From: a virus
Taxonomy: Duplodnaviria > Heunggongvirae > Uroviricota > Caudoviricetes
Length of the DNA: 19,594 nt
Strand: one strand, 5' to 3'
Virus record (IMG/VR): IMGVR_UViG_3300017707_001811
Location: 165,573-185,166 of that record
The notes under the pieces were generated by a model that worked only from the letters and a program-made list of their open reading frames with translations, had not been told where the DNA came from and ran no database searches. Made by a program: the position numbers and the translations under genes. Each line of letters opens with the position of its first letter. Within the stretch, counting starts at the first letter, position 1. Positions 2,340-19,594 of the stretch are shown in pieces.

Positions 2340-3359
2340 ATGATATATAAATTTGAATACATTTGGTTAGATGGATATACTCCCGAACCAAACCTTAGAA
2401 GTAAAACAAAGGTAATTAACTTCACAAAAGAAGATTTTACAATAACAGACCTACCAATATGGAGTTTTGATGGCTCATCAACAAAACAAGCTGAAGGTAT
2501 TGACTCAGATTGTCTTTTGAAACCTGTTAAAATGATTAAAGACCCACAAAGAAAGAATGGGTATCTTGTATTGTGTGAAGTCTTAAATGTTGATGAAACT
2601 CCACATGAGTCAAATATGAGAGCAAAGGTTGCGGATGACCCAAATCTTTGGCTTGGTTTTGAGCAAGAGTTCTTCATTTATAAAGATGGATTACCATTAG
2701 GGCATAATGGTATAACACCAAAACCACAAGGAGAATACTATTGTGGAATTGGTTCGGAAAACATTTCAGGACGAGATATTATTGAACATCATTTGGACCT
2801 ATGTTTGGCCGCAGGACTTAATATGACAGGAATCAATGCTGAAGTGGCACTCGGTCAATGGGAATTCCAAGTTATGGGTAAAGGAGCTCTTGATGCTTGC
2901 GACCAACTAACACTTGCAAGATACATTCTTAATAGGCTTTCAGAGTCTTACAAAGTGTCAATTGAATATCACCCAAAACCACTTGGTGATACAGATTGGA
3001 ATGGGTCAGGAATGCACACAAATTTCTCAACCAAACAAATGAGAGAAGAAGGCGGAAAGGAACTATTTGATGAAATCTTCCGTGTATTTAAAACAAACCA
3101 CGACAAACATATTTCGGTTTATGGTTCAGATAATGAACAAAGACTTACAGGTAAACATGAAACTCAGTCTATTGATAAGTTTAGTTGGGGTGTGAGTGAC
3201 AGAGGTGCATCAATTCGTATTCCACAAACCACAGTTAAAAACGGATGGAGAGGTTATTTGGAAGATAGAAGACCAGCATCAAATGCTTGTCCTTATATGA
3301 TTACAAAACAAATTTCAGAATCATTAAAATTGGCTCAAAATAATTTTAGTTTTGTTTAA
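2340..3359 (+). CDS. glnII: Glutamine synthetase type II (GSII)
   Basis: EYIWLDG, WSFDGSSTKQAEG..SDC.LKP, GFEQE, PQGEYYC, GINAEV..GQWEFQV, HPKP...DWNGSGMHTNFST, RLTGKHET, DRGASIRIP and GYLEDRRPASN motifs. 339 aa is typical GSII size. Confidence 0.95.
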   Translation: MIYKFEYIWLDGYTPEPNLRSKTKVINFTKEDFTITDLPIWSFDGSSTKQAEGIDSDCLLKPVKMIKDPQRKNGYLVLCEVLNVDETPHESNMRAKVADDPNLWLGFEQEFFIYKDGLPLGHNGITPKPQGEYYCGIGSENISGRDIIEHHLDLCLAAGLNMTGINAEVALGQWEFQVMGKGALDACDQLTLARYILNRLSESYKVSIEYHPKPLGDTDWNGSGMHTNFSTKQMREEGGKELFDEIFRVFKTNHDKHISVYGSDNEQRLTGKHETQSIDKFSWGVSDRGASIRIPQTTVKNGWRGYLEDRRPASNACPYMITKQISESLKLAQNNFSFV

Positions 3360-4575: not shown

Positions 4576-5259
4576 ATGAATGTTATAGTTTTAGGTGGAA
4601 CAGGGCTCTTAGGCTCCGAGTTCAAAAAAAATAGTGATTTTATACTTTGTGGTAGTGAAGTTGACATTAGAAGTGAAAATGAACTTTTTTTAAAGTTAGA
4701 TTCATTAAGACCAAAAATAATTCTATTAGCGGCTGCGAAAACTAATTCAGTTGAGATTGATAATAATCCTATTGATGCTATTGAAACTAATATAAAAGGT
4801 ACTGCTAATGTTGTTAAATACTGTATTAAAAATAATATTAGACTTGTATATATTTCTACTGACTATGTCTATAACCCAAAGGGAACGGAACATAGAGAAA
4901 ACGATTCTTTAAATCCTTTTAATTATTATGCTTGGACAAAATTAGGTGGAGAATGTTCAGTTAGAGGACATAAAAATTCCCTAATAATAAGGACTTCTTT
5001 TGGTTCCCAAGAGTATCCATATGAATTTGCATATACAAATAGATTGGTCAATAAAGACTATGTTGATGTGATAGCACCAATGATAAGAGATTTGACTTTA
5101 TCTAATGAAACAGGTATAATAAACGTTGGAACCGATGTAAAAACACTGTTTCAGTATGCTACTCAGAGGAATCCAAATGTTAAACCATTAAGACAATTAA
5201 TTCCCAATGATTTTACAATGGACTTAAATAAACTAAGAAGATTAAAATATATTAAATGA
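4576..5259 (+). CDS. rmlD: dTDP-4-dehydrorhamnose reductase-like (RmlD-family extended SDR), shortened
   Basis: Rossmann GGTGLLG, ETNIKGTANV, ISTDYVY and catalytic YxxxK (YAWTK). 227 aa is shorter than typical RmlD, so the substrate is uncertain. Confidence 0.8.
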   Translation: MNVIVLGGTGLLGSEFKKNSDFILCGSEVDIRSENELFLKLDSLRPKIILLAAAKTNSVEIDNNPIDAIETNIKGTANVVKYCIKNNIRLVYISTDYVYNPKGTEHRENDSLNPFNYYAWTKLGGECSVRGHKNSLIIRTSFGSQEYPYEFAYTNRLVNKDYVDVIAPMIRDLTLSNETGIINVGTDVKTLFQYATQRNPNVKPLRQLIPNDFTMDLNKLRRLKYIK

Positions 5260-6266
5260 TTAAATATGCAGATGTAATTGTAGACCTACAAGCTGGGGAT
5301 ACTGGAAAAGGGAAAGTATGTAATACCTTATCAAAGATTGATAATGAATATACTCATGTTATCCGATATAATGGAGGAGGTAATGCGGGTCACACAATTT
5401 ATAAAGACGGTAAAAAAATGGTAACGCATTTTATACCATCAGGAATTGTTAATGGTATAAAATCAATAATAGGTCCTGGATGTGTATTAAATGTAGAATC
5501 TTTAATGAAAGAAATTGAAACACTTGAAAAAGAAGGTGTTGAAATTAAAGGAAAACTTTTTATAGATAAAAGAGTTAATTTAATAACTGATGAACATCTT
5601 ATAGAAGAATTTAATGAAAGTAAAATAGGGACAACGAAAACAGGTAATGGTCCCGCATATAGGGACAAATATTTTAGAAAGGGAAAACGAGTTGAAGATA
5701 ATAGCGAGTTATTAAAAGATTATATAATTGACATCTATCAGGAATTACACGGTAACTCAGATAGTAAAATATTATTTGAAGGGGCACAAGGATTTGAACT
5801 TGATATTGATTGGGGTGATTACCCTTATGTGACATCATCACATTGTACTGTTGGAAGTGCTATTTTAAACGGAGTTCCACCACAAAAAATAAGAAAAGTT
5901 TATGGAGTTGCAAAGGCTTATAATACTTATGTTGGCTCTAAAAAATTTGAAGATAATAGTGATATATTTGATAAAATTAGAGAATTAGGTAATGAGTACG
6001 GCTCAACTACTGGTAGAGCTAGACAAATTAAATGGACAAATATTGATGACCTAGTAAAGGCATCAAATATAAATGGAGTAACTCATTTAATTATTAATAA
6101 AATAGACATACTTGAAAGTATTGGGCAATTTACAATAGTGGTTAATGGATTCCCAAGAACGTTTAATAACAAAGATTTCTTTCAAAATTTTATTGAGGAC
6201 ACAATGAAAAGATATTGTCCATTAATACAAGAAGTTATTTTTAGTTCTTATGCGGACGTAATATAA
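5256..6266 (+). CDS. purA: Adenylosuccinate synthetase, compact form (336 aa)
   Basis: DLQAGD15TGKGK, GGGNAGH46T, IGTTKTGNGPAYRDK, FEGAQG, GDYPYVTSS, EYGSTTGRAR (Asp-binding loop) and NKID (GTP-binding K-x-D). Confidence 0.9.
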   Translation: MIKYADVIVDLQAGDTGKGKVCNTLSKIDNEYTHVIRYNGGGNAGHTIYKDGKKMVTHFIPSGIVNGIKSIIGPGCVLNVESLMKEIETLEKEGVEIKGKLFIDKRVNLITDEHLIEEFNESKIGTTKTGNGPAYRDKYFRKGKRVEDNSELLKDYIIDIYQELHGNSDSKILFEGAQGFELDIDWGDYPYVTSSHCTVGSAILNGVPPQKIRKVYGVAKAYNTYVGSKKFEDNSDIFDKIRELGNEYGSTTGRARQIKWTNIDDLVKASNINGVTHLIINKIDILESIGQFTIVVNGFPRTFNNKDFFQNFIEDTMKRYCPLIQEVIFSSYADVI

Positions 6267-6940: not shown

Positions 6941-7831
6941 ATGAGATTACTACAGGAAGAAATTAATAGAGTTAAAGAAATTATAAAAGTGATTTCTATT
7001 AATGAAAATAGTGAGAAATATTTACCATGTCAAAGATTCGGAGAACCAAAAAAAACTGTATGTAAGGCATTTAATAACTTAGGACCTTGGATTGTTGATT
7101 ATAATGGATTAGGTATGAGGAAATTAATTGATGAAAAAATTAAAAACATCCAAACAAACATACCTGAGAAAATTATTGAAAATTTTAGAGAAGGAATTGA
7201 GTTAATTAGAAAAACTGGTAAATACTCAGATTCATATATTGAGGAAAAACTCAACGACATCTCCAATAAAACACAAGTATATATAAACGGAGAGTGGAAT
7301 TATATTAATAAATTAAATACTAATTATAGAGATTTATCAGAGTTACTAACTGATGTTATTGAAAAAATTGATAAGATAGATAATGTTAGTCAGTGGTTAA
7401 ACTCAAAAAAAAGAACTGATGAAGAGGTAAAAAATTTTCTAACTAAAAGTGTTAAACCAAAATTAAAATATTGGATTAATGAGTTTTTTAAAACTTCCGA
7501 AGAGTTATTTGATTATACATATAATATAAAATATAATTCTAGCTTAGGTGAGGAAAGTGAGAATAGAATAGTTGATTTCCTTAAAGGAAATGGATTTGAA
7601 ATTTTATACCAAGGGGGTAACGGAGATTTTATCGATATGTTATTTGGGGTTGACTTGATTGTTAAAAGAGATGATTATGGTATTATCTTAATACAAGTCA
7701 AAAATAATGGACCAAAATGGGAACAACTAGGAAGATATAATGTAGATTGGGTTGCGATAGGTGACAGTAAAAAAATATACGATAAGAAAACTAAACAATT
7801 AATTGATATTACTCAATTTTATACAAAATAA
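6941..7831 (+). CDS. Leader-bearing protein with C-terminal PD-(D/E)xK nuclease-like domain
   Basis: N-terminal MRLLQEEINRVKEII..SINE leader. C-terminal GEESE helix, then IDMLFGVDLIV...LIQVK, matching restriction-endonuclease-fold motifs II and III (QxK variant). Confidence 0.6.
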   Translation: MRLLQEEINRVKEIIKVISINENSEKYLPCQRFGEPKKTVCKAFNNLGPWIVDYNGLGMRKLIDEKIKNIQTNIPEKIIENFREGIELIRKTGKYSDSYIEEKLNDISNKTQVYINGEWNYINKLNTNYRDLSELLTDVIEKIDKIDNVSQWLNSKKRTDEEVKNFLTKSVKPKLKYWINEFFKTSEELFDYTYNIKYNSSLGEESENRIVDFLKGNGFEILYQGGNGDFIDMLFGVDLIVKRDDYGIILIQVKNNGPKWEQLGRYNVDWVAIGDSKKIYDKKTKQLIDITQFYTK

Positions 7832-11573: not shown

Positions 11574-11891
11574 TTAAAAATAATATACGACTATATCTGA
11601 TTGAACGTCAACTGCTCTATAATGAGTACCAGTTTTATCCTCAACCCACTTAGCGATTGACGAAATGGAATCTATATTTTTCAAAGAAAAGAAAGAAGCA
11701 ATTTCTTCCATTAATTTCCTATCAATTGTACACCAATGACTCTTATTATTAAATTTAATCTGAGCATATTCATCTTTATTTGAATTAAGGAAATAACCGT
11801 TTATTCCATACTCCATATAAACAAAATCCTGATTGTCAAGATACTTAAATATTACATTTTCAATTCGAGATTCGGAGATTAGATATTTCAT
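11574..11891 (-). CDS. Hypothetical protein (105 aa) with MKYLISES leader, paralog of 18254..18574
   Basis: Shares MKYLIxES, FKYLDxQxF, EEIxxFFS and WVExK with 18254..18574. TATTTAT lies 7 nt upstream (11899-11905). Confidence 0.8.
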   Translation of the reverse strand: MKYLISESRIENVIFKYLDNQDFVYMEYGINGYFLNSNKDEYAQIKFNNKSHWCTIDRKLMEEIASFFSLKNIDSISSIAKWVEDKTGTHYRAVDVQSDIVVYYF

Positions 11892-11895
11892 TGTA

Positions 11896-12222
11896 TTAAT
11901 AAATACTTAATACGAAAAATTCAACATCCCACTCTGAACCATATTCTTCCATATTCAAACCAAACATGGAATCAATTGTTCTCCAAATTTCTCTTTTTAA
12001 ATCATGACCAATTAAGACTCCCTTATTTGGTTTAAAGTTGCCCTTTAATATTCCTTCGGGGTCAATTAGTATTTGAATGTTGGTTCTTTCAATACGTCTA
12101 TCCTCTGATGCCAACCATACCCCAACCTTTTTGAATTTAACATCAACAACATCATTAAAAGTACTTTTAAGAAATCTTTCAATCGACGAATTGATTTTAC
12201 TTTCAGTAATAAGATATTTCAT
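11896..12222 (-). CDS. Hypothetical protein (108 aa; start revised from 12363) with MKYLITES leader
   Basis: Internal ATG 12222 gives the family leader MKYLITESK, with TATTTAT 5 nt upstream. The listed upstream extension overlaps the divergent gene. Confidence 0.78.
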   Translation of the reverse strand: MKYLITESKINSSIERFLKSTFNDVVDVKFKKVGVWLASEDRRIERTNIQILIDPEGILKGNFKPNKGVLIGHDLKREIWRTIDSMFGLNMEEYGSEWDVEFFVLSIY

Positions 12223-12290: not shown

Positions 12291-13028
12291 ATGAAAGATA
12301 ATATAACATCAAATTATATTGAGTTAAATATATTAAACAAGATTTTGAATAAAAAATTATCAAATAAATTTGACTGGTTTAAAGGTATTGAATTAACACA
12401 AGTTGGGGTTAATAACAATCAAAATTATCTGTATATGAATGGTGATATCTATCTTGATGAAGATTGGGTAGGTAATCAGTGGAGAAAATATTATGATTAT
12501 AAAGAATTACCTTTTTTTGGTGATAATAGTGATTATACATTTGGTGATTTGATAGGTTCAAGGGATGAATGGATTGATAAATTAAAAGAAATATTTATTT
12601 CAACATTTAATACCATACATGGAGGTAAACCTCCTAAATATTTATCATTTAGTTGGATTAATGTTCATCCTGTTGAAATAGACAAGGATGATTATAATTT
12701 TTTGGAAGAAAACTTTACTAAAATTTTAAAAGAAAATACAAATATTAACTCAAGAGTCAGAAGAAGAATTAATTTACTTGATGATGAGTTATTATATAGA
12801 ATGAGTGCGATTTATAGACCTGATAATATATGTAGATATGTAAGTGGTGAAGAATTATTAGAAGTAATTATAGAGGCGGTAATTGATGCTATGTATTGGA
12901 CTTATTTTAGTGATATGGATGATAATTCAGGAGAGTGGAATGAATCTTATTATTTTATGTATGATTATATGAAAGACAAATATGGTGAAAAAATAAAAGA
13001 ATATTACCACATTAATTGCGGAAATTAA
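12291..13028 (+). CDS. Hypothetical protein (245 aa; ATG start preferred over TTG 12285) with internal leader-like segment
   Basis: Contains LEENFTKILKENT at 12702-12740, resembling the family leader, which suggests two fused modules. Confidence 0.78.
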   Translation: MKDNITSNYIELNILNKILNKKLSNKFDWFKGIELTQVGVNNNQNYLYMNGDIYLDEDWVGNQWRKYYDYKELPFFGDNSDYTFGDLIGSRDEWIDKLKEIFISTFNTIHGGKPPKYLSFSWINVHPVEIDKDDYNFLEENFTKILKENTNINSRVRRRINLLDDELLYRMSAIYRPDNICRYVSGEELLEVIIEAVIDAMYWTYFSDMDDNSGEWNESYYFMYDYMKDKYGEKIKEYYHINCGN

Positions 13029-13029
13029 A

Positions 13030-14235
13030 ATGACAGAAAAATTTAAAAATAAAATAAAAAATATCGTAAATGAGTTAGGGTACTACGAAGCCAAAAAAAT
13101 TATTGGTGTCTCTTTTACTGAATTGGCTGAATTAATTGATGAAAGAATACCTTACGATTTTGCACATGAAATATTAATAGAGAATATTAATAATAAAAAT
13201 ATACCTACAGAATATAAAGAATTTAAAATTCATACTAGTTTTGATGGGGTTCTTTATTGGAGTACAAAAATAAAAACAGGACATTTTTTATCTAATATTA
13301 TAGAACATATTCATTTAGTTGCAACTCCGTTTTGGGACGGAAACGAATATACTCCAGTCGAACTTGATTGGTATGCGCTGTATAATGACGATACAAATAA
13401 AAAAATTGTTGATTTTGGTAGTGACGGTAGTTTCTTTAGAAGAATTGAAGATAGAACGTCATTTAAAAATCTTGATGATTTATTCCAATGGTATAAAGAA
13501 TTCTATTTACCTACAATATATAATATAACAATGAATGACTTCTTACCAAATATCCAACAAGTTGCCGACGATGAGTTAGATGAAAGATTCGGCCCAACTA
13601 ATTTAGAGGAACAAATAAGAAGAATACTAAAAGAAGAAGTTAATAAAAAATTCTTGAAACCAAATGAAAAAACTGAAAAACTTATTTTAGATAGGTTAAA
13701 TAATATTTTTTCAGATATGAATATATATCACGTTGAAAGTTATAAAACAAGACACGATTTTGAGTTTTGTAAAAATGGTAAGGAAATAATGAATTTAGTA
13801 TTGTTTTTTGAAGAAACTAATGACCGAAGACCAACATCTGAAAGAACATTCATAGAGTCAACTTTATTTATACCCAAAGAGTTAGTTAACGATATGTTAA
13901 CCTTTATGCCTATTAGAAAAAATTATCTTCATTACGTAATTGAAGAATGGTTCGAGGATAATTTTTTAAGTAAAATCTCAAATATGATGGGTAGAAATGA
14001 TATATCTGTGGATGAATTATCATTTAGAGATAGTGTTGATGTATGTGTACCACCAATTACTGAAAAACCTGAAGATGTTACCCAAGAGGAGATGATTAAG
14101 GTTATTATGAATAATACACTATGGCGTAAAAAAGATTTAGTTGCGTTAGAAGAAAGAGAACCTGGGTCTATAGAACGGATGTATTTACAAAAACTTCGTA
14201 ATATTGAAATGGATAGATTAAGAAGTAATAGATAA
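13030..14235 (+). CDS. Hypothetical two-module protein (401 aa) with internal TNLEEQIRRILKEE leader
   Basis: Residue 190 onward (nt 13597) reproduces the MNLQExIRxxLKEE leader of the downstream genes, with T in place of M. Confidence 0.8.
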   Translation: MTEKFKNKIKNIVNELGYYEAKKIIGVSFTELAELIDERIPYDFAHEILIENINNKNIPTEYKEFKIHTSFDGVLYWSTKIKTGHFLSNIIEHIHLVATPFWDGNEYTPVELDWYALYNDDTNKKIVDFGSDGSFFRRIEDRTSFKNLDDLFQWYKEFYLPTIYNITMNDFLPNIQQVADDELDERFGPTNLEEQIRRILKEEVNKKFLKPNEKTEKLILDRLNNIFSDMNIYHVESYKTRHDFEFCKNGKEIMNLVLFFEETNDRRPTSERTFIESTLFIPKELVNDMLTFMPIRKNYLHYVIEEWFEDNFLSKISNMMGRNDISVDELSFRDSVDVCVPPITEKPEDVTQEEMIKVIMNNTLWRKKDLVALEEREPGSIERMYLQKLRNIEMDRLRSNR

Positions 14236-14236
14236 T

Positions 14237-14806
14237 ATGAACCTACAAGAACATATAAGAAAAGTATTAAGGGAAGAACTTAATGAAGTTAGAGTTCCAA
14301 GAAGTGAAAGAGTGGAAGTATATAAAGATGATAATATAATTGTTGTTGTTCCATTAACACATAGAGCATTACAAAAATATGCTCACCAATGCCAGTGGTG
14401 TATTAATGATGATATTCATGAGTGGGAAGATTACCATAAAGGTAAACATGCGGTAATAATTCAAAGAAACCCAAAGAAACTAAAAATAGGTATAACAGGA
14501 AATCCAACGGCATCGGAAATATTTTTATTAGCCAAATGGGATAACAATCAATCAAGTTTTGAGGATGTATGCCAGATGTTAGATTATGAATTTAGGAATG
14601 ATAGAACAATGTCTGATTATTATGTAACGATTTCAAACGATATAAATAACTTCGCCACCAACATAGTCTATTATTCACCTGAAACAGGTATCTACGACCA
14701 AGAAGATAATTTCTTATGGAATTTTAATATAGAGATAAATGACATCCCGAATGTAAAACCTAAAGTCATTGAGATAATGGATGATTATTTAACTGAAGAA
14801 GAATGA
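14237..14806 (+). CDS. Hypothetical protein (189 aa) with MNLQEHIRKVLREE leader
   Basis: Leader followed by a YKDDNIIVVVPLTH..LQKYA..CQWCI segment, a type I associate with uncharacterised large-phage proteins (from memory, unverified). Confidence 0.8.
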   Translation: MNLQEHIRKVLREELNEVRVPRSERVEVYKDDNIIVVVPLTHRALQKYAHQCQWCINDDIHEWEDYHKGKHAVIIQRNPKKLKIGITGNPTASEIFLLAKWDNNQSSFEDVCQMLDYEFRNDRTMSDYYVTISNDINNFATNIVYYSPETGIYDQEDNFLWNFNIEINDIPNVKPKVIEIMDDYLTEEE

Positions 14807-14845
14807 ACCTACAAGAACAAATATCAAGAATGCAATCAATGATGG
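14803..14845 (+). repeat. 43-bp exact direct repeat, copy 1 (gene 5' end)
   Basis: ATGAACCTACAAGAACAAATATCAAGAATGCAATCAATGATGG, identical at 15843-15885. Confidence 0.95.
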
Positions 14846-15246
14846 AGGACAATAATACTAGAAGAACTGGTGTTGGGAGAACTATGGATACATTCACATT
14901 TGATGATTTATATGATGAACTTTTAGGGTCAACTTATTTTAAATTTCAAAACTATGATATTTGGTTTGGTGTTAATGGTGAAGAAATAACAGACGAATTA
15001 ACCAATAAAATATTAGATTCACTTATACCTCAAGATAGTTACAGTTCATATGAGAAGTGGAAAAATTCAAAATGGTATAACATAACAGGATTCCCATTTT
15101 CAAGTAAAGATTGGTCAATGGTTAAGAATGGAGATGAACAATTCAAATGGCACTCCACAGGACATAAAAACATGGAAGAACGAATATTCAATTCGTATTT
15201 AGAAAAATATGGGCAATTCATAGTTGTTAATTTAACTGATAATTAA
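14803..15246 (+). CDS. Hypothetical protein (147 aa) with MNLQEQISRMQSMM leader
   Basis: ATGA overlap with the upstream stop. First 43 nt identical to those of 15843..16571. Confidence 0.8.
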   Translation: MNLQEQISRMQSMMEDNNTRRTGVGRTMDTFTFDDLYDELLGSTYFKFQNYDIWFGVNGEEITDELTNKILDSLIPQDSYSSYEKWKNSKWYNITGFPFSSKDWSMVKNGDEQFKWHSTGHKNMEERIFNSYLEKYGQFIVVNLTDN

Positions 15247-15247
15247 T

Positions 15248-15841
15248 ATGAACCTACAAGAAACAATAAGAAAAGTATTAAAGGAAGAAACCAAAAGAAT
15301 TGATGATTTTTTGGACACAATAACAGATGTACACGAAATGTCCGATGAATTAAAAGAATTTGTTAAAAAATTTATTGAAGAATCTGATTGTAAAAGGATA
15401 GATTTCTCAAATTTTAAAATGCCTGTAATGGGAGTGGCGTTAGAAAGTGGGGTTTTAATTAATTCTGAAGTTATTGATTATGATTTAGAATTTTTGTTAT
15501 TTTTAATATTTCATGAAATCGCTCACCAATATCAATTTAAAAAATACGGGGCTGATATTATGTATGATTGTTATATTGGTGACATAACAGAAATAAAAGC
15601 TGCTGAGTTTATGAAAAAAACGGAAGAAGTTGCTGATGAATTCGCGGCAAGGAAAATTAGAGAACTCCAAAAAATAGGTTTGATGGGAGAATATAATCCT
15701 CCACAAATGTACAAAAGTGTCCCAATACAAAAAATAACGAAGATGATTCGTAATTACAGAAATGATATGAAAATAAAAAATATCAATTCACCAATAAAGG
15801 TTAGTGAGTATTTTTATAATGCAGTTAAAAGTGAATTATAA
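15248..15841 (+). CDS. Leader-bearing HExxH zinc metallopeptidase-like protein (ImmA/IrrE-like)
   Basis: MNLQETIRKVLKEE leader, H89-E-I-A-H93, and downstream E126-x-x-A-D-E-F-A typical of ImmA/IrrE-type zincins. Confidence 0.7.
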   Translation: MNLQETIRKVLKEETKRIDDFLDTITDVHEMSDELKEFVKKFIEESDCKRIDFSNFKMPVMGVALESGVLINSEVIDYDLEFLLFLIFHEIAHQYQFKKYGADIMYDCYIGDITEIKAAEFMKKTEEVADEFAARKIRELQKIGLMGEYNPPQMYKSVPIQKITKMIRNYRNDMKIKNINSPIKVSEYFYNAVKSEL

Positions 15842-15842
15842 T

Positions 15843-15885
15843 ATGAACCTACAAGAACAAATATCAAGAATGCAATCAATGATGG
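15843..15885 (+). repeat. 43-bp exact direct repeat, copy 2 (gene 5' end)
   Basis: Identical to 14803-14845. The sequences diverge immediately afterwards. Confidence 0.95.
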
Positions 15886-16571
15886 GATTAAACGAGGTAT
15901 CAAACCCGTATTCAATCACTTGGTTAGAACCTACAAAGGAATATTTTACACAAGAGTTAGAAGAGTTACTTGGAAATCCAATGAGGTTCAGCAAAGATGA
16001 ATTCTTTCACCCACAAAATTATGATTTAATGTATTCCATATTTCCACACACATTCAAAATAATTGCGGAACATGCAAAAGGAAGTGAAGTGGATAATGAA
16101 CAAGAAATTAAAGACATTCTATTAGATAAAGAAATATCTGATTTAATGAATGATTGGGACGATTTTAAACTAGTTCTATTAAAAGATGAACAATCACAAA
16201 TGGAAGGGTTTAATTTGTTTAATAAAGGAAGAATGGAAGAATGGGGAGATGAGAAAATAAACAGTACATTTTATATGGGAAGATTCTCAAAAGTGTTTCC
16301 AAGAATGTTTAAAGATACAACATCATCAGGATTAATTAAACAAATGAAAAATGATGATGGAGAAGTTAACCCGTACCACAAAGGCTATTTTGATAATATA
16401 GAAAATTTAAGAAACAAAAAACATAGAGAACTTCCAGCACCATTTGTAATGAAACTACCAACAGGTGGAAGAGAAGGGAATGAATATACGTTAATTGGTG
16501 GACATAAACGTTCAACAATCGCTAACCAACTAAACGTACCAATATCAGTTTGGTTTATAGAATTATCGTAG
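15843..16571 (+). CDS. Leader-bearing protein with C-terminal ParB/sulfiredoxin-like domain (242 aa; start revised from 15804)
   Basis: ATG 15843, 1 nt after the upstream stop, gives the family leader. The C-terminus LPAPFV...YTLIGGHKR..IANQLNVPISV fits the ParB/Srx P-x-V...L-I-x-G-H-x-R pattern. Confidence 0.6.
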   Translation: MNLQEQISRMQSMMGLNEVSNPYSITWLEPTKEYFTQELEELLGNPMRFSKDEFFHPQNYDLMYSIFPHTFKIIAEHAKGSEVDNEQEIKDILLDKEISDLMNDWDDFKLVLLKDEQSQMEGFNLFNKGRMEEWGDEKINSTFYMGRFSKVFPRMFKDTTSSGLIKQMKNDDGEVNPYHKGYFDNIENLRNKKHRELPAPFVMKLPTGGREGNEYTLIGGHKRSTIANQLNVPISVWFIELS

Positions 16572-17063
16572 ATGAACCTACAAAAGACAATAAGAAGAGT
16601 ATTGAAAGAAACCCTTGAATCTAGATGGAATAAAGGTAATTACAACTACCAACACGGGTTCTGTCATTATTTCGCATATAACATAATTGATAAAATTAGA
16701 GAAAGATTCCCCAACAAGAAAGTTAATTACTATCTGTTGTTAGCGAACGAAGTTGATACCGAATTTAATAATGATGTTGTACAAGAATATCTAATCCATG
16801 CTTATATTCAAATAGATGATATGTTACTTGATTCAAATGGATTCACAACAGAAGATGCTGCTTGGGAAAGATTGGAAGAATGGGAAAGAGTTCAAAGACG
16901 AATGACACCTGATGAGTATGAGATTAATATATGGGATGAAGAAACAGATGAAATACCTGAATGGTTCTTCAATAATAGTTTTTGTAACACAGGAAGAGTT
17001 AAGAAAGATATGGAAGAATTCCTAAATAACCCAATAGTTCAAAGAATATTAAGAGACAAATGA
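16572..17063 (+). CDS. Leader-bearing protein with putative Cys-His-Asp triad (papain/transglutaminase-like)
   Basis: MNLQKTIRRVLKE leader, then GFC31HYFA, IH76AYI and LLD87SNG in the order and spacing of a papain/transglutaminase-like triad. Confidence 0.55.
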   Translation: MNLQKTIRRVLKETLESRWNKGNYNYQHGFCHYFAYNIIDKIRERFPNKKVNYYLLLANEVDTEFNNDVVQEYLIHAYIQIDDMLLDSNGFTTEDAAWERLEEWERVQRRMTPDEYEINIWDEETDEIPEWFFNNSFCNTGRVKKDMEEFLNNPIVQRILRDK

Positions 17064-17518
17064 ATCTACAAGAACATATAAAGAAAGCACTAAGAGAAAA
17101 TACTAGTGATAAATTTTTATCTACAATAAAGAAACATGGTTTATTTCATTTTCTTATGGTGAGTCAAATAAACCCCATGATTCTTGGAAAATATGTAAAA
17201 TATGAAGAACTACCAAAAGAAATTATATATAGATTCTTGGATGATTTAGGTAATTCAAATAAGATAAGTGAATGGATAACAGATTATTATGATAGTCCAT
17301 TATATTTTAAAAGAGGTCAAGATGGTAGGATATATGAAATACAAACCTTTGGATATAACGGTTCCGTAACAGGGGAGTTTTTTATAGATAAAACGTATAT
17401 TAATAATTTTACATTGGATTATGATTTATTACCTGATTATACTTTAGATAAATTATTTGAAATGGCTTTACTCGGACCATTTTATCAATCAATTTATAAG
17501 GATAATGTTAAAGATTAA
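17060..17518 (+). CDS. Hypothetical protein (152 aa) with MNLQEHIKKALREN leader, paralog of 9891..10343
   Basis: Leader and shared motifs with 9891..10343. ATGA overlap with the upstream stop. Confidence 0.8.
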   Translation: MNLQEHIKKALRENTSDKFLSTIKKHGLFHFLMVSQINPMILGKYVKYEELPKEIIYRFLDDLGNSNKISEWITDYYDSPLYFKRGQDGRIYEIQTFGYNGSVTGEFFIDKTYINNFTLDYDLLPDYTLDKLFEMALLGPFYQSIYKDNVKD

Positions 17519-18253: not shown

Positions 18254-18574
18254 TTAACCCGCACCACAATCGGAGTAAGGTTCACCAACAGTAATATCAA
18301 ATTTATTTTCAACCCAACTGGCTACCAAATATAAACATTCATCCAAAGATATTGAAAAGAAATTTGAAATCTCTTCCAATAAAGAACAACTAATATAACA
18401 ATCATTAGATTTACGATGAGTGGAAATAATTGCGTAAGATAAACGTTCCCTCCAATGAATCTCAGATGGCCAAAAAAGAATATCACCTTCATCCTCAAGA
18501 TGAAAAAAGTTTTGCATATCAAGATACTTAAATACTAATCTATCAAACTGTGATTCGTCTATTAGGTATTTCAT
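18254..18574 (-). CDS. Hypothetical protein (106 aa) with MKYLIDES leader, paralog of 11574..11891
   Basis: Leader and shared motifs with 11574..11891. ATGA overlap with the upstream stop. Confidence 0.8.
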   Translation of the reverse strand: MKYLIDESQFDRLVFKYLDMQNFFHLEDEGDILFWPSEIHWRERLSYAIISTHRKSNDCYISCSLLEEISNFFSISLDECLYLVASWVENKFDITVGEPYSDCGAG

Positions 18575-18939
18575 GATATATGAGCACTCCTTACTTCTGT
18601 AACTTTATATTCAGGGAATAAACTAACAAACACGTCTGCTAATAGGTATCTGGCATTAACCGACCAAAAAGGGTGAGGAAGCATCTCATCATATCTATCC
18701 AAAGACCTATCATAATATAATTCACCACTATGTTTATTAAATACCATTAATTTAACACCATCAGAATCGTATAATGTAATGTGAGAATCTCTTTCACTAT
18801 ATTCACCAATTAAGTTCTCAAAATGAGGAATAAGTTTATGTTTTAGTTTCTCATATATTTCAACATATTTAACATCTCTCCAAGTCCTTTCAAGCTCGGA
18901 AATAAGTTTAAGTTGTGATTCGGTGATAAGGTATTTCAT
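18571..18939 (-). CDS. Hypothetical protein (122 aa; start revised from 18954) with MKYLITES leader
   Basis: ATG 18939 gives the family leader, with TATTTATA (18944-18951, minus strand) immediately upstream. Confidence 0.8.
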   Translation of the reverse strand: MKYLITESQLKLISELERTWRDVKYVEIYEKLKHKLIPHFENLIGEYSERDSHITLYDSDGVKLMVFNKHSGELYYDRSLDRYDEMLPHPFWSVNARYLLADVFVSLFPEYKVTEVRSAHIS

Positions 18940-19025: not shown

Positions 19026-19594
19026 ATGGAACTATCAAGATTTCTTACAATAGTCATTCCCTGTAAGAACGAATCAAAAATTATTGATACGACTCTTTCT
19101 TTACTTAATTCCCAAAAAAATATTAATGGTGTTAAAGTTATTATTTCAGATTCTTCTGATGATGGAACGACATATAATCTTGAAACAAGAAACAGAGACC
19201 ATTTTGATTTATTAATAATCCAAGGAGGACTTCCAGGTTATGCAAGAAACAAAGGGGCTGAAAGAGTTGAAACCCCATATGTTTTATTTATGGATGCCGA
19301 TATCTTTATTCTTGACCCAAATTTATTAACTGAAGCGATTAAGTTAATGAGAAGAAATGAGTATGACTTACTAACAACAAAGGTAAGAACAACCAATGGG
19401 AAATATAACTACGTATTCAGGTTCTTTGATGTGGTACAAAAGTCAATTAAACCATTCACGCCATTTTGTCTTGGTGGGTTTATGTTATTTAAAACTGAGA
19501 CATTTAATAGACTTGGTGGATTTGATGAAGAAGCAAAAGTTGCTGAAGATTACCTGTTATCAAAACAAGTATTCAGTGATAAGTTCAAGATAAT
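19026..19594 (+). CDS. Glycosyltransferase family 2 (GT-A fold), 3'-truncated, not in the ORF track
   Basis: Manual translation MELSRFLTIVIPCKNES...VIISDSSDDGT...ARNKGA...YVLFMDADIF (DxD)...GGFMLFK..FNRLGGFDE....EDYLLS. Open to the window end. Confidence 0.9.
   Translation, partial: MELSRFLTIVIPCKNESKIIDTTLSLLNSQKNINGVKVIISDSSDDGTTYNLETRNRDHFDLLIIQGGLPGYARNKGAERVETPYVLFMDADIFILDPNLLTEAIKLMRRNEYDLLTTKVRTTNGKYNYVFRFFDVVQKSIKPFTPFCLGGFMLFKTETFNRLGGFDEEAKVAEDYLLSKQVFSDKFKI

Follow-up and report, generated by a model that had tools for sequence, protein, structure and literature searches.

Introduction

The internal proteins of phage T4 share a 10-residue capsid-targeting sequence (CTS) that gp21 cuts at L/I-X-E, and their diverse mature parts are injected; Ip1-3 block GmrSD restriction enzymes, a different one in each case (PMC9026906, PMC3012670, PMC12373910). 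In T-even phages, the internal-protein (ip) loci show high plasticity (PMC2839356), and these loci and the CTS are credited to Repoila et al. (1994) where that work is cited in PMC3012670, PMC2839356, and PMC12373910. This study describes a comparable locus in a 19,594-nucleotide stretch of viral DNA (the window, by which we mean the whole stretch that was analyzed), which forms the terminal 19.6 kb of the 185-kb IMG/VR virus record IMGVR_UViG_3300017707_001811 (G000; GC 31%). At 14237-17518, the window carries six back-to-back genes whose products begin with a shared leader of 14-18 residues. Comparison with relatives indicates that phages exchange such cassettes at the leader-coding DNA, where insertion, deletion, and fusion of cassettes also take place; the array thus works as a recombinational cassette array whose "linker" is part of the coding sequence. 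At the protein level, the leader also forms a conserved peptide module, which a preliminary description of this DNA had missed, and it probably serves as a targeting or propeptide signal.

In all features that can be read from sequence, the present system matches the T4 internal proteins. As in the T-even phages, small proteins that are otherwise unrelated have a short N-terminal leader in common, and their genes are concentrated in a few hypervariable loci, the content of which varies among related phages; as in T4, the lineage encodes gp21-like and gp23-like head proteins. Like the CTS, the leader closes with L/I-X-E, here a candidate site for cleavage of the gp21 kind. However, the leader comprises 14-18 residues rather than the 10 of T4 IPIII, has another sequence, and occurs in at least two forms here and in four among relatives. 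The carriers are uncultured freshwater jumbo phages, probably of Bacteroidota, and both hosts and phages are distant from the T-even system. In contrast to the T-even loci, the genes are translationally coupled without an intergenic promoter or stem-loop element, and the repeat available for exchange is therefore the coding leader itself; fusions with internal leaders also occur here.

In T4-type phages, PeSL cassettes are intergenic, span about 100 bp, and unite a stem-loop with a promoter (Arbiol et al. 2010, PMC2839356; Comeau et al. 2014, PMC4122927). Homology of <50 bp reportedly suffices for T4-type recombination (Singer et al. 1982, as cited in PMC2839356). PeSL-mediated shuffling is the closest described mechanism. 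What the two systems have in common is that ORFans of hyperplastic regions are flanked by a short conserved repeat, which also bounds the insertions, deletions, and replacements that separate close relatives. In both cases, exchange is proposed to proceed by phage homologous recombination over patches of <50 bp, with no dedicated integrase. Unlike the PeSLs, the present locus has no intergenic space and no stem-loop, and its repeat is translated. In phiKZ-like giant phages, many of the proteins inside the head undergo cleavage after Glu by a protease related to gp21, and the propeptides serve assembly (PMC9026906, PMC5694885, PMC7411985). The inner-body and ejection proteins of these phages resemble the arrangement proposed here in combining a propeptide with a gp21-type protease; however, their motif is S/A-X-E, the phage lineage is different, and no shared leader or tandem cassette array is reported in the three papers cited.

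Results

Six genes with a common leader

Six reading frames are the only plausible genes in 14237-17518 (Table 1); we numbered them 1-6 by their starts at 14237, 14803, 15248, 15843, 16572, and 17060. The sequence statements of the preliminary description all hold. Each gene begins with ATGAAC/TCTACAA: ATGAACCTACAAGAA begins genes 1-4, ATGAACCTACAA begins gene 5, and ATGAATCTACAAGAACATATAA begins gene 6, where 21 of 22 nt are the same as in gene 1. The junctions are ATGA overlaps (14806/14803 and 17063/17060), a zero gap (16571/16572), or 1-nt gaps of the form TAAtATG (14235/14237, 15246/15248, and 15841/15843). The earlier wording that the 5' ends are near-identical applies to the first five codons and to genes 2 and 4, whose first 43 nt are identical (43/45 over 45 nt) before they diverge. 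It does not apply to whole leaders; after the initial 12-15 nt, identity among the four type-A leaders is limited to 28-38 of 45 nt.

Two leader forms were present in the window, namely type A (MNLQExIRKvLREE; genes 1, 3, 5, and 6) and type B (MNLQEQISRMQSMM(GLNE); genes 2 and 4). The exact start 12-mer occurred five times, with a sixth copy carrying one mismatch, each at the start of an array gene. When up to two mismatches were allowed, 12 matches were found against 3.5 expected, and 0 of 200 shuffles reached 12. The 15-mer ATGAAYCTACAAGAA had no other copy anywhere in the 185-kb record. Leader hidden Markov models (HMMs) built from relatives detected seven clear copies in the whole record (the six starts and an internal copy at 13600), together with two weaker look-alikes at 6950 and 9897. 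The leader array is a real, non-chance feature. Because leaders survive inside the two fused genes immediately upstream, the array extends over 12291-17518 and is wider than the six genes.

Table 1. Features of the leader array and its flank in the window
Feature	Position	Strand	Description
Fusion, first gene of the plus-strand operon	12291..13028	+	Leaderless module joined to a leader-bearing cassette
Fused open reading frame	13030..14235	+	Leaderless N-terminal module (13030-13599) and leader cassette
Cassette 1	14237..14806	+	Type-A leader MNLQEHIRKVLREELNE (14237-14287) and conserved 170-aa payload (PLTH...CQWCIN...)
Cassette 2	14803..15246	+	Type-B leader MNLQEQISRMQSMM (14803-14845, identical to 15843-15885) and orphan payload
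Cassette 3	15248..15841	+	Type-A leader MNLQETIRKVLKEE (15248-15289) and small HExxH payload
Cassette 4	15843..16571	+	Type-B leader MNLQEQISRMQSMMGLNE (15843-15896) and 224-aa payload
Cassette 5	16572..17063	+	Type-A leader MNLQKTIRRVLKE (16572-16610) and payload
Cassette 6, last of the array	17060..17518	+	Type-A leader MNLQEHIKKALRE (17060-17098) and orphan payload
Flanking gene, putatively glycosyltransferase-like	19026..19592	+	TIVIPCKNE motif

Cassette order and breakpoints in relatives

The preliminary description had proposed a recombinational cassette array, and we aligned the array across relatives and mapped the breakpoints. The results revealed that the gene order is conserved in no relative and that the breakpoints fall at the leaders. 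Neither a conserved order lacking leader breakpoints nor an explanation of the leader codons by overall codon bias was found, and the proposal is supported. All four cassettes with relatives (genes 1, 3, 4, and 5) lie between different neighbors in other phages; none of the array adjacencies is conserved, and the cassette order differs in each relative. In L027, for example, gene 4 takes the third and gene 1 the fifth of six places, and the gene-3 homologue lies 6 kb off with a different leader.

The homology blocks coincide closely with single cassettes. The gene-1 block (window 14228-14823) was 98% identical to L001/L027 over 597 bp in phages that are otherwise about 67-70% alike; it extended from about 5 nt before ATG 14237 to 17 nt into the next leader, and both flanks were unrelated. 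Gene 4 showed 86-90% identity in L001/L027 and L028-L030, with different neighbors each time; the L001/L027 match (89%) ran from 2 nt before the ATG to 38 nt into the next gene, and those of L028-L030 were similar. The matches of gene 5 to L036, L037, and L038 began exactly at the ATG and ended 5-38 nt into the next leader. Overall, the gene-4 and gene-5 blocks started 0-7 nt before their own ATG and ended 4-38 nt into the next gene, and the gene-3 block shared with L024 extended from position -5 relative to the ATG through the first 28 nt of the next leader. Whole-cassette insertions and deletions distinguished L016/L018/L020, which are 94-97% identical in the upstream flank and the first shared cassettes and 83-96% identical further downstream; their blocks overlapped on the leader repeat (-15 to +43).

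We then counted alignment ends over non-redundant loci by using alignments of >=88% identity. A quarter of the ends (62/247, 25%) lay within -20..+50 of the ATG of a type A or B leader, compared with 2.8% of random positions (maximum 6.5% in 500 trials), which corresponds to 0.45 ends per leader and 0.084 per other gene start. Alignments overrun into leaders by construction because the leaders resemble each other, which shifts the ends by up to about 45 nt and creates none. These findings make cassette shuffling at the leaders highly probable. A weak RecA hit was obtained in 5/5 records searched (a protein of about 335 residues, E 1e-4 to 1e-6); the hits are below the Pfam cut-off and therefore provide only a lead to a UvsX-like recombinase.

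Codon usage in the leaders

The preliminary description had claimed that the conservation of the leader DNA exceeds what the peptide needs. The leader codons do defy the genome bias, and this part of the claim stood; long identical arms were not found. Genome-wide, AAC accounts for 25% of Asn codons, CTA for 10% of Leu codons, and ATA for 36% of Ile codons, whereas the six leaders use AAC in 5/6, CTA in 6/6, and ATA in 6/6 cases. We extended the comparison to 149 leader genes from about 30 related contigs, weighted by 60 payload families. AAC occupied codon 2 in 78% of the leaders compared with 23% in the payloads of the same genes; the corresponding values were 68% and 8% for CTA among Leu at codon 3, 93% and 44% for ATA at codon 7, and 74% and 16% for AGG among Arg at codon 12. 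Third-position entropy was 0.73-0.77 bits in codons 2-14 and 1.6-1.8 bits just downstream. Overall codon bias thus fails to account for the synonymous identity of the leaders.

General selection on the 5' ends of genes was rejected as the cause of these codons because 183 non-leader genes of the phage lack the bias; their first twelve codons showed a mild third-position A preference and no AAC preference. The tRNAs of the phage were not discriminating. The record carries 23 tRNA genes (G000 C1 116313-138853), including Leu-TAG, Ile-TAT, Asn-GTT, Gln-TTG, Glu-TTC, Val-TAC, and Leu-TAA, and thereby encodes tRNAs cognate to AAC, CTA, ATA, CAA, GAA, GTA, and TTA; however, alternatives are also encoded, and genome-wide usage stays AAT/TTA/ATT-rich.

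Another shared leader, MKYLI(T/S/D)ES..., was observed in four minus-strand genes of the window (11574-12222 and 18254-18939), and relatives carry long arrays of such genes. Compared with the MNLQE leader, this leader is far more variable at its synonymous sites, as illustrated by Ile5 (ATC/ATT/ATA 32/19/14).

The leader as a peptide module

One payload family carries different leader types, depending on the phage. The gene-3 payload follows the leader MNLQETIRKVLKEET in the window, MRHIIKKILKEET in L027, and MKRIIRLTESDLIRFVRRIINEET in L039, that is, an MNLQE-, MRHIIKKILKEET-, or MKRIIRLTESDL-type leader. Similarly, a "DPKxGTGKKPK" payload bears a type-A leader in L016 (8638) and a type-C leader in L018 (9408). 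The hydrophobic positions 3, 7, 10, and 11 of the leader fit one face of a helix, and its charged positions vary between K and R. L/I-X-E, a short motif, occurs in the leaders as LQE at positions 3-5, as L(R/K)E at positions 11-13, and as GLNE in type B. In the gene-1 family, the 13 distinct N-termini vary in length and type, and in all of them (L/I)-x-E immediately precedes the conserved "RVP" with which the payload begins. A peptide role is likely the main reason that the leader exists.

A Peptidase_S77 (gp21) homologue above the Pfam cut-off was found in 4/5 near-complete relatives. In L005, the order is gp21-like protease, gp23-like capsid gene, and gene-1 homologue, the last lying 1.7 kb downstream of the gp23-like gene, and a gene-1 homologue lies within the head module of at least five contigs. 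A comparison of five genomes for joint occurrence of the protease and strict MNLQE leaders was uninformative; G001 has the protease without strict MNLQE leaders. By analogy with T4, the leader may function in capsid targeting, an assignment that we regard as plausible and hold tentatively.

A 534-residue open reading frame (ORF) with weak Mom, REase_MTES_1575, and zinc-finger hits was observed between the gp23-like capsid gene and the gene-1 homologue of L005 (6366-7967), and L006 has an extra ORF at the same place. The L005 ORF may be a mobile insertion in the head module.

A TATTTAT box was present 8-25 nt upstream of the ATG in 37/211 ORFs of the record, including many tail and baseplate genes and several leader-bearing genes. 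In the window, examples were found upstream of 6941, 8199, 9891, 11891 (-), and 18939 (-). The leader-bearing genes with this box in the window are of types C/D or leader-like, and the MNLQE genes that head arrays in relatives also have it. The box may be a late promoter like TATAAATA of T4, in which case some transcripts would have almost no 5' untranslated region; by this analogy, late expression is suggested.

Payloads and fusions

The six payloads showed no pairwise similarity (all E > 0.1); all are acidic and comprise 130-230 residues. Searches of Pfam and PHROGs yielded nothing usable for the six proteins and two neighbors. A pattern method identified no relatives of genes 2 and 6 in IMG/VR, and none of gene 2 were found among the fetched related loci. 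For gene 1, the AlphaFold2 model was of low confidence (predicted local distance difference test [pLDDT] 66), and a PDB-sequence profile search, Foldseek of the model, and a protein atlas gave no fold match and weak leads only. For gene 3, the motif HEIAH was invariant across 6 homologues, and the AlphaFold2 model reached a pLDDT of 86, with leader residues 4-15 below 50. The best fold matches of this model were zincins, namely the metalloprotease domain of the anti-restriction protein ArdC (Z 6.4), PprI/IrrE (PprI; 5.9), and Wss1 and SprT-like proteins (about 5.3). The predicted gene-3 payload looks like a small HExxH zinc metallopeptidase, and the moderate scores show its fold class at most.

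Both genes upstream of cassette 1 are fusions. The first contains a degenerate internal leader, LEENFTKILKEN, at 12702-12737; L024 and L037 have free-standing 110-aa MNLQE-leader genes that correspond to its residues 138-245, and its residues 8-160 match L020 6865. The second contains the internal leader NLEEQIRRILKEE at 13600-13638, where the leader HMM matches and the ATG has been lost. The segment 13600-14287 is 81% identical to separate genes that begin with MNLQEHIKRVLREE at position 8001 of L016-L021, and the two halves of this ORF are separate adjoining genes in L038. Fusions also occurred elsewhere. In L004 8001-9290, the gene-1 domain is joined to a zinc-ribbon peptide and to one more cassette that bears a leader, and the gene-5 payload lies within a 507-aa fusion in G004.

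Two mini-modules were observed to move between cassettes, on either side of the gene-1 domain (L004 8001-9290, L010 7590-8546, and L036 87-239). One is zinc-ribbon-like (CGWSW...DDPY.CHKCG), and the other is a KCW(K/P)GYTQKGMKTM peptide.

The phage and its relatives

The gene content of the record, including its 23 tRNAs, is that of a large tailed phage, and its CheckV completeness is 63%. Relatives that are near-complete (290-320 kb) have genes for a prohead protease of the gp21 type and a capsid protein of the gp23 type, and the phage group is therefore distantly T4-like. The carrier of the array is a T4-like jumbo phage, and its host probably belongs to the Bacteroidota. The nearest cultured capsid genes (41-42% identity) belong to the Flavobacterium phage "immuto" group, which has the closest one (42%), and a Microcystis phage. 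Neither tblastn of genes 1 and 4 nor blastn of the leader gave a match in 50,697 cultured-phage records, among which no cultured carrier of the leader array was found.

The glycosyltransferase-like gene downstream of the array is 67% identical to L001, L027, and L030 over window 19203-19568, and similar N-termini adjoin leader arrays in L002, L025, L031, and L032. This putative glycosyltransferase gene recurs beside the arrays and marks a conserved hot spot. Further upstream in the window, three translations were judged by eye to be a putative subtilisin-like protease with a poly-proline linker (3-1442), a putative glutamine-synthetase-type enzyme (2340-3359), and a putative adenylosuccinate synthetase (5256-6266); these genes retain 71-74% identity in L016-L020.

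Discussion

The explanation that we favor for the locus as a whole, and consider fairly probable, combines a shuffling array with a capsid-targeting leader peptide. The array is hypervariable over 12291-17518, with the six genes as its core and each cassette consisting of a 14-18-residue N-terminal leader and an unrelated acidic payload, and ordinary phage homologous recombination on patches of 15-45 bp is the likely route of exchange. The leader would act as a peptide signal, an amphipathic helix detached from the fold of the payload, which ends in (L/I)-x-E and can be swapped between leader types. It would most likely target the payload into the prohead, a gp21-type protease would then remove it, and the payloads would be delivered together with the DNA. 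Encapsulin cargo-loading peptides are alike in that a short terminal peptide on diverse cargo directs entry into an HK97-fold shell. In contrast to what is proposed for the leader, these peptides usually sit at the C-terminus, are retained rather than cut off by a protease, and have no link to cassette exchange.

Several observations weigh against this explanation. Selection for intact genes would likewise cause the breakpoints that survive to lie near gene borders. When orthologous cassettes are compared, their leader DNA has diverged at about the same rate as their payload DNA (leader/payload identities of 0.987/0.988, 0.931/0.952, and 0.756/0.748 in orthologous pairs), and leaders of the same type are homogenized within genomes by only +0.02 identity (permutation p about 0.003). 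The strong concerted evolution that had been expected was thus rejected, the effect being significant but small, and there is accordingly no special preservation of the leaders in the form of long identical arms. Since orthologous leaders diverge like payloads and yet remain off-bias, they drift around an atypical consensus that something maintains. The motif (L/I)-x-E is short, common in an L/I/E-rich proteome, and partly the leader consensus itself, and no gp21 homologue was found in the 63%-complete record to which the window belongs. Moreover, some payload families have no leader, and internal leaders persist in fusions with a leaderless N-terminal module, neither of which a strictly N-terminal signal predicts.

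If the leader were only a peptide signal, the likeness of its DNA would be a by-product of descent without any role as homology arms; illegitimate or other recombination would move the cassettes, and selection for intact genes would leave the breakpoints near their borders. The agreement between leader and payload identity in orthologous pairs, the tendency of leaders to stay with their payload (likeness of 0.765 within the same payload family and 0.677 within the same contig), and the small homogenization speak for such a view. However, constraint on the peptide alone would not be expected, at equilibrium, to yield off-bias consensus codons over 60 unrelated families, alignment ends are five times denser per leader start than per other gene start, and the homology blocks stop inside the next leader rather than at the stop codon, and we consider this view improbable. 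The preliminary description had also raised an RNA-level initiation signal, which our results do not support; no stable or conserved fold was found, and other genes show no comparable 5' codon bias. Such a signal for starting or restarting translation in the coupled genes, with the peptide secondary, would presume a host lineage that largely lacks Shine-Dalgarno pairing. The favored codons avoid U and take A or C in the third position (AAC, CTA, ATA, GTA, and TCA), the junctions overlap or leave gaps of 0-1 nt without a Shine-Dalgarno sequence, and the start regions are essentially unstructured, all of which would suit it. Nevertheless, the RNA folds at the six starts (minimum free energy -2 to -8 kcal/mol) match shuffled controls (z -0.7 to +2.0) and none is common to the starts, the 183 non-leader genes are only mildly biased at the 5' end, conservation follows a helical hydrophobic pattern (L3, I7, V/I10, and L11) with K/R and I/V exchanges, the same payload takes other leader types instead, and leaders are kept inside fused reading frames, where nothing initiates. 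An mRNA signal as the cause of the conserved nucleotides is therefore very unlikely. Within the same z range, the cassette boundaries showed no inverted-repeat folds like those of integron attC sites; no search was aimed at an integrase.

The leader peptide may have a function other than capsid targeting, such as docking to a phage or host machine, recruitment of a chaperone, or a regulated degradation tag, with the shuffling unchanged. The absence of a detected gp21-type protease in the window's own record, the G001 genome, and the tolerance of internal and absent leaders favor such a function, whereas the T4-like head genes of the relatives with their gp21-type protease, the (L/I)-x-E at the junction of leader and payload, the gene-1 homologues in head modules, and a putative late-promoter box common to structural genes argue for a head-related role; we regard other functions as possible, although not likely. 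A further reading, which we consider doubtful to a similar extent, takes the leader as a translated recombination site; cassette-level selection would hold it close to a consensus common to the whole population, and integrase-free exchange within the coding sequence would be combined with protease sites that cut fusions apart. Cassettes with leader DNA that agrees with the consensus would find more partners and spread between co-infecting phages, and fusions would be tolerated since the fused cassettes could be cut apart at the protease sites.

Whatever the function of the leader, the array shows modular exchange with the linker inside the coding sequence rather than between genes, and such a linker leaves a measurable footprint in synonymous codons. 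The array extends the picture of accessory-gene shuffling in T4-like phages, drawn from PeSLs and internal-protein loci, to an uncultured group. If the leader is a capsid-loading tag, the arrays would list the proteins injected by a large group of uncultured freshwater jumbo phages. The injected payloads would then be prime candidates for counter-defense, as the T4 internal proteins proved to be, and the tag would provide a handle for loading foreign proteins into such phages.

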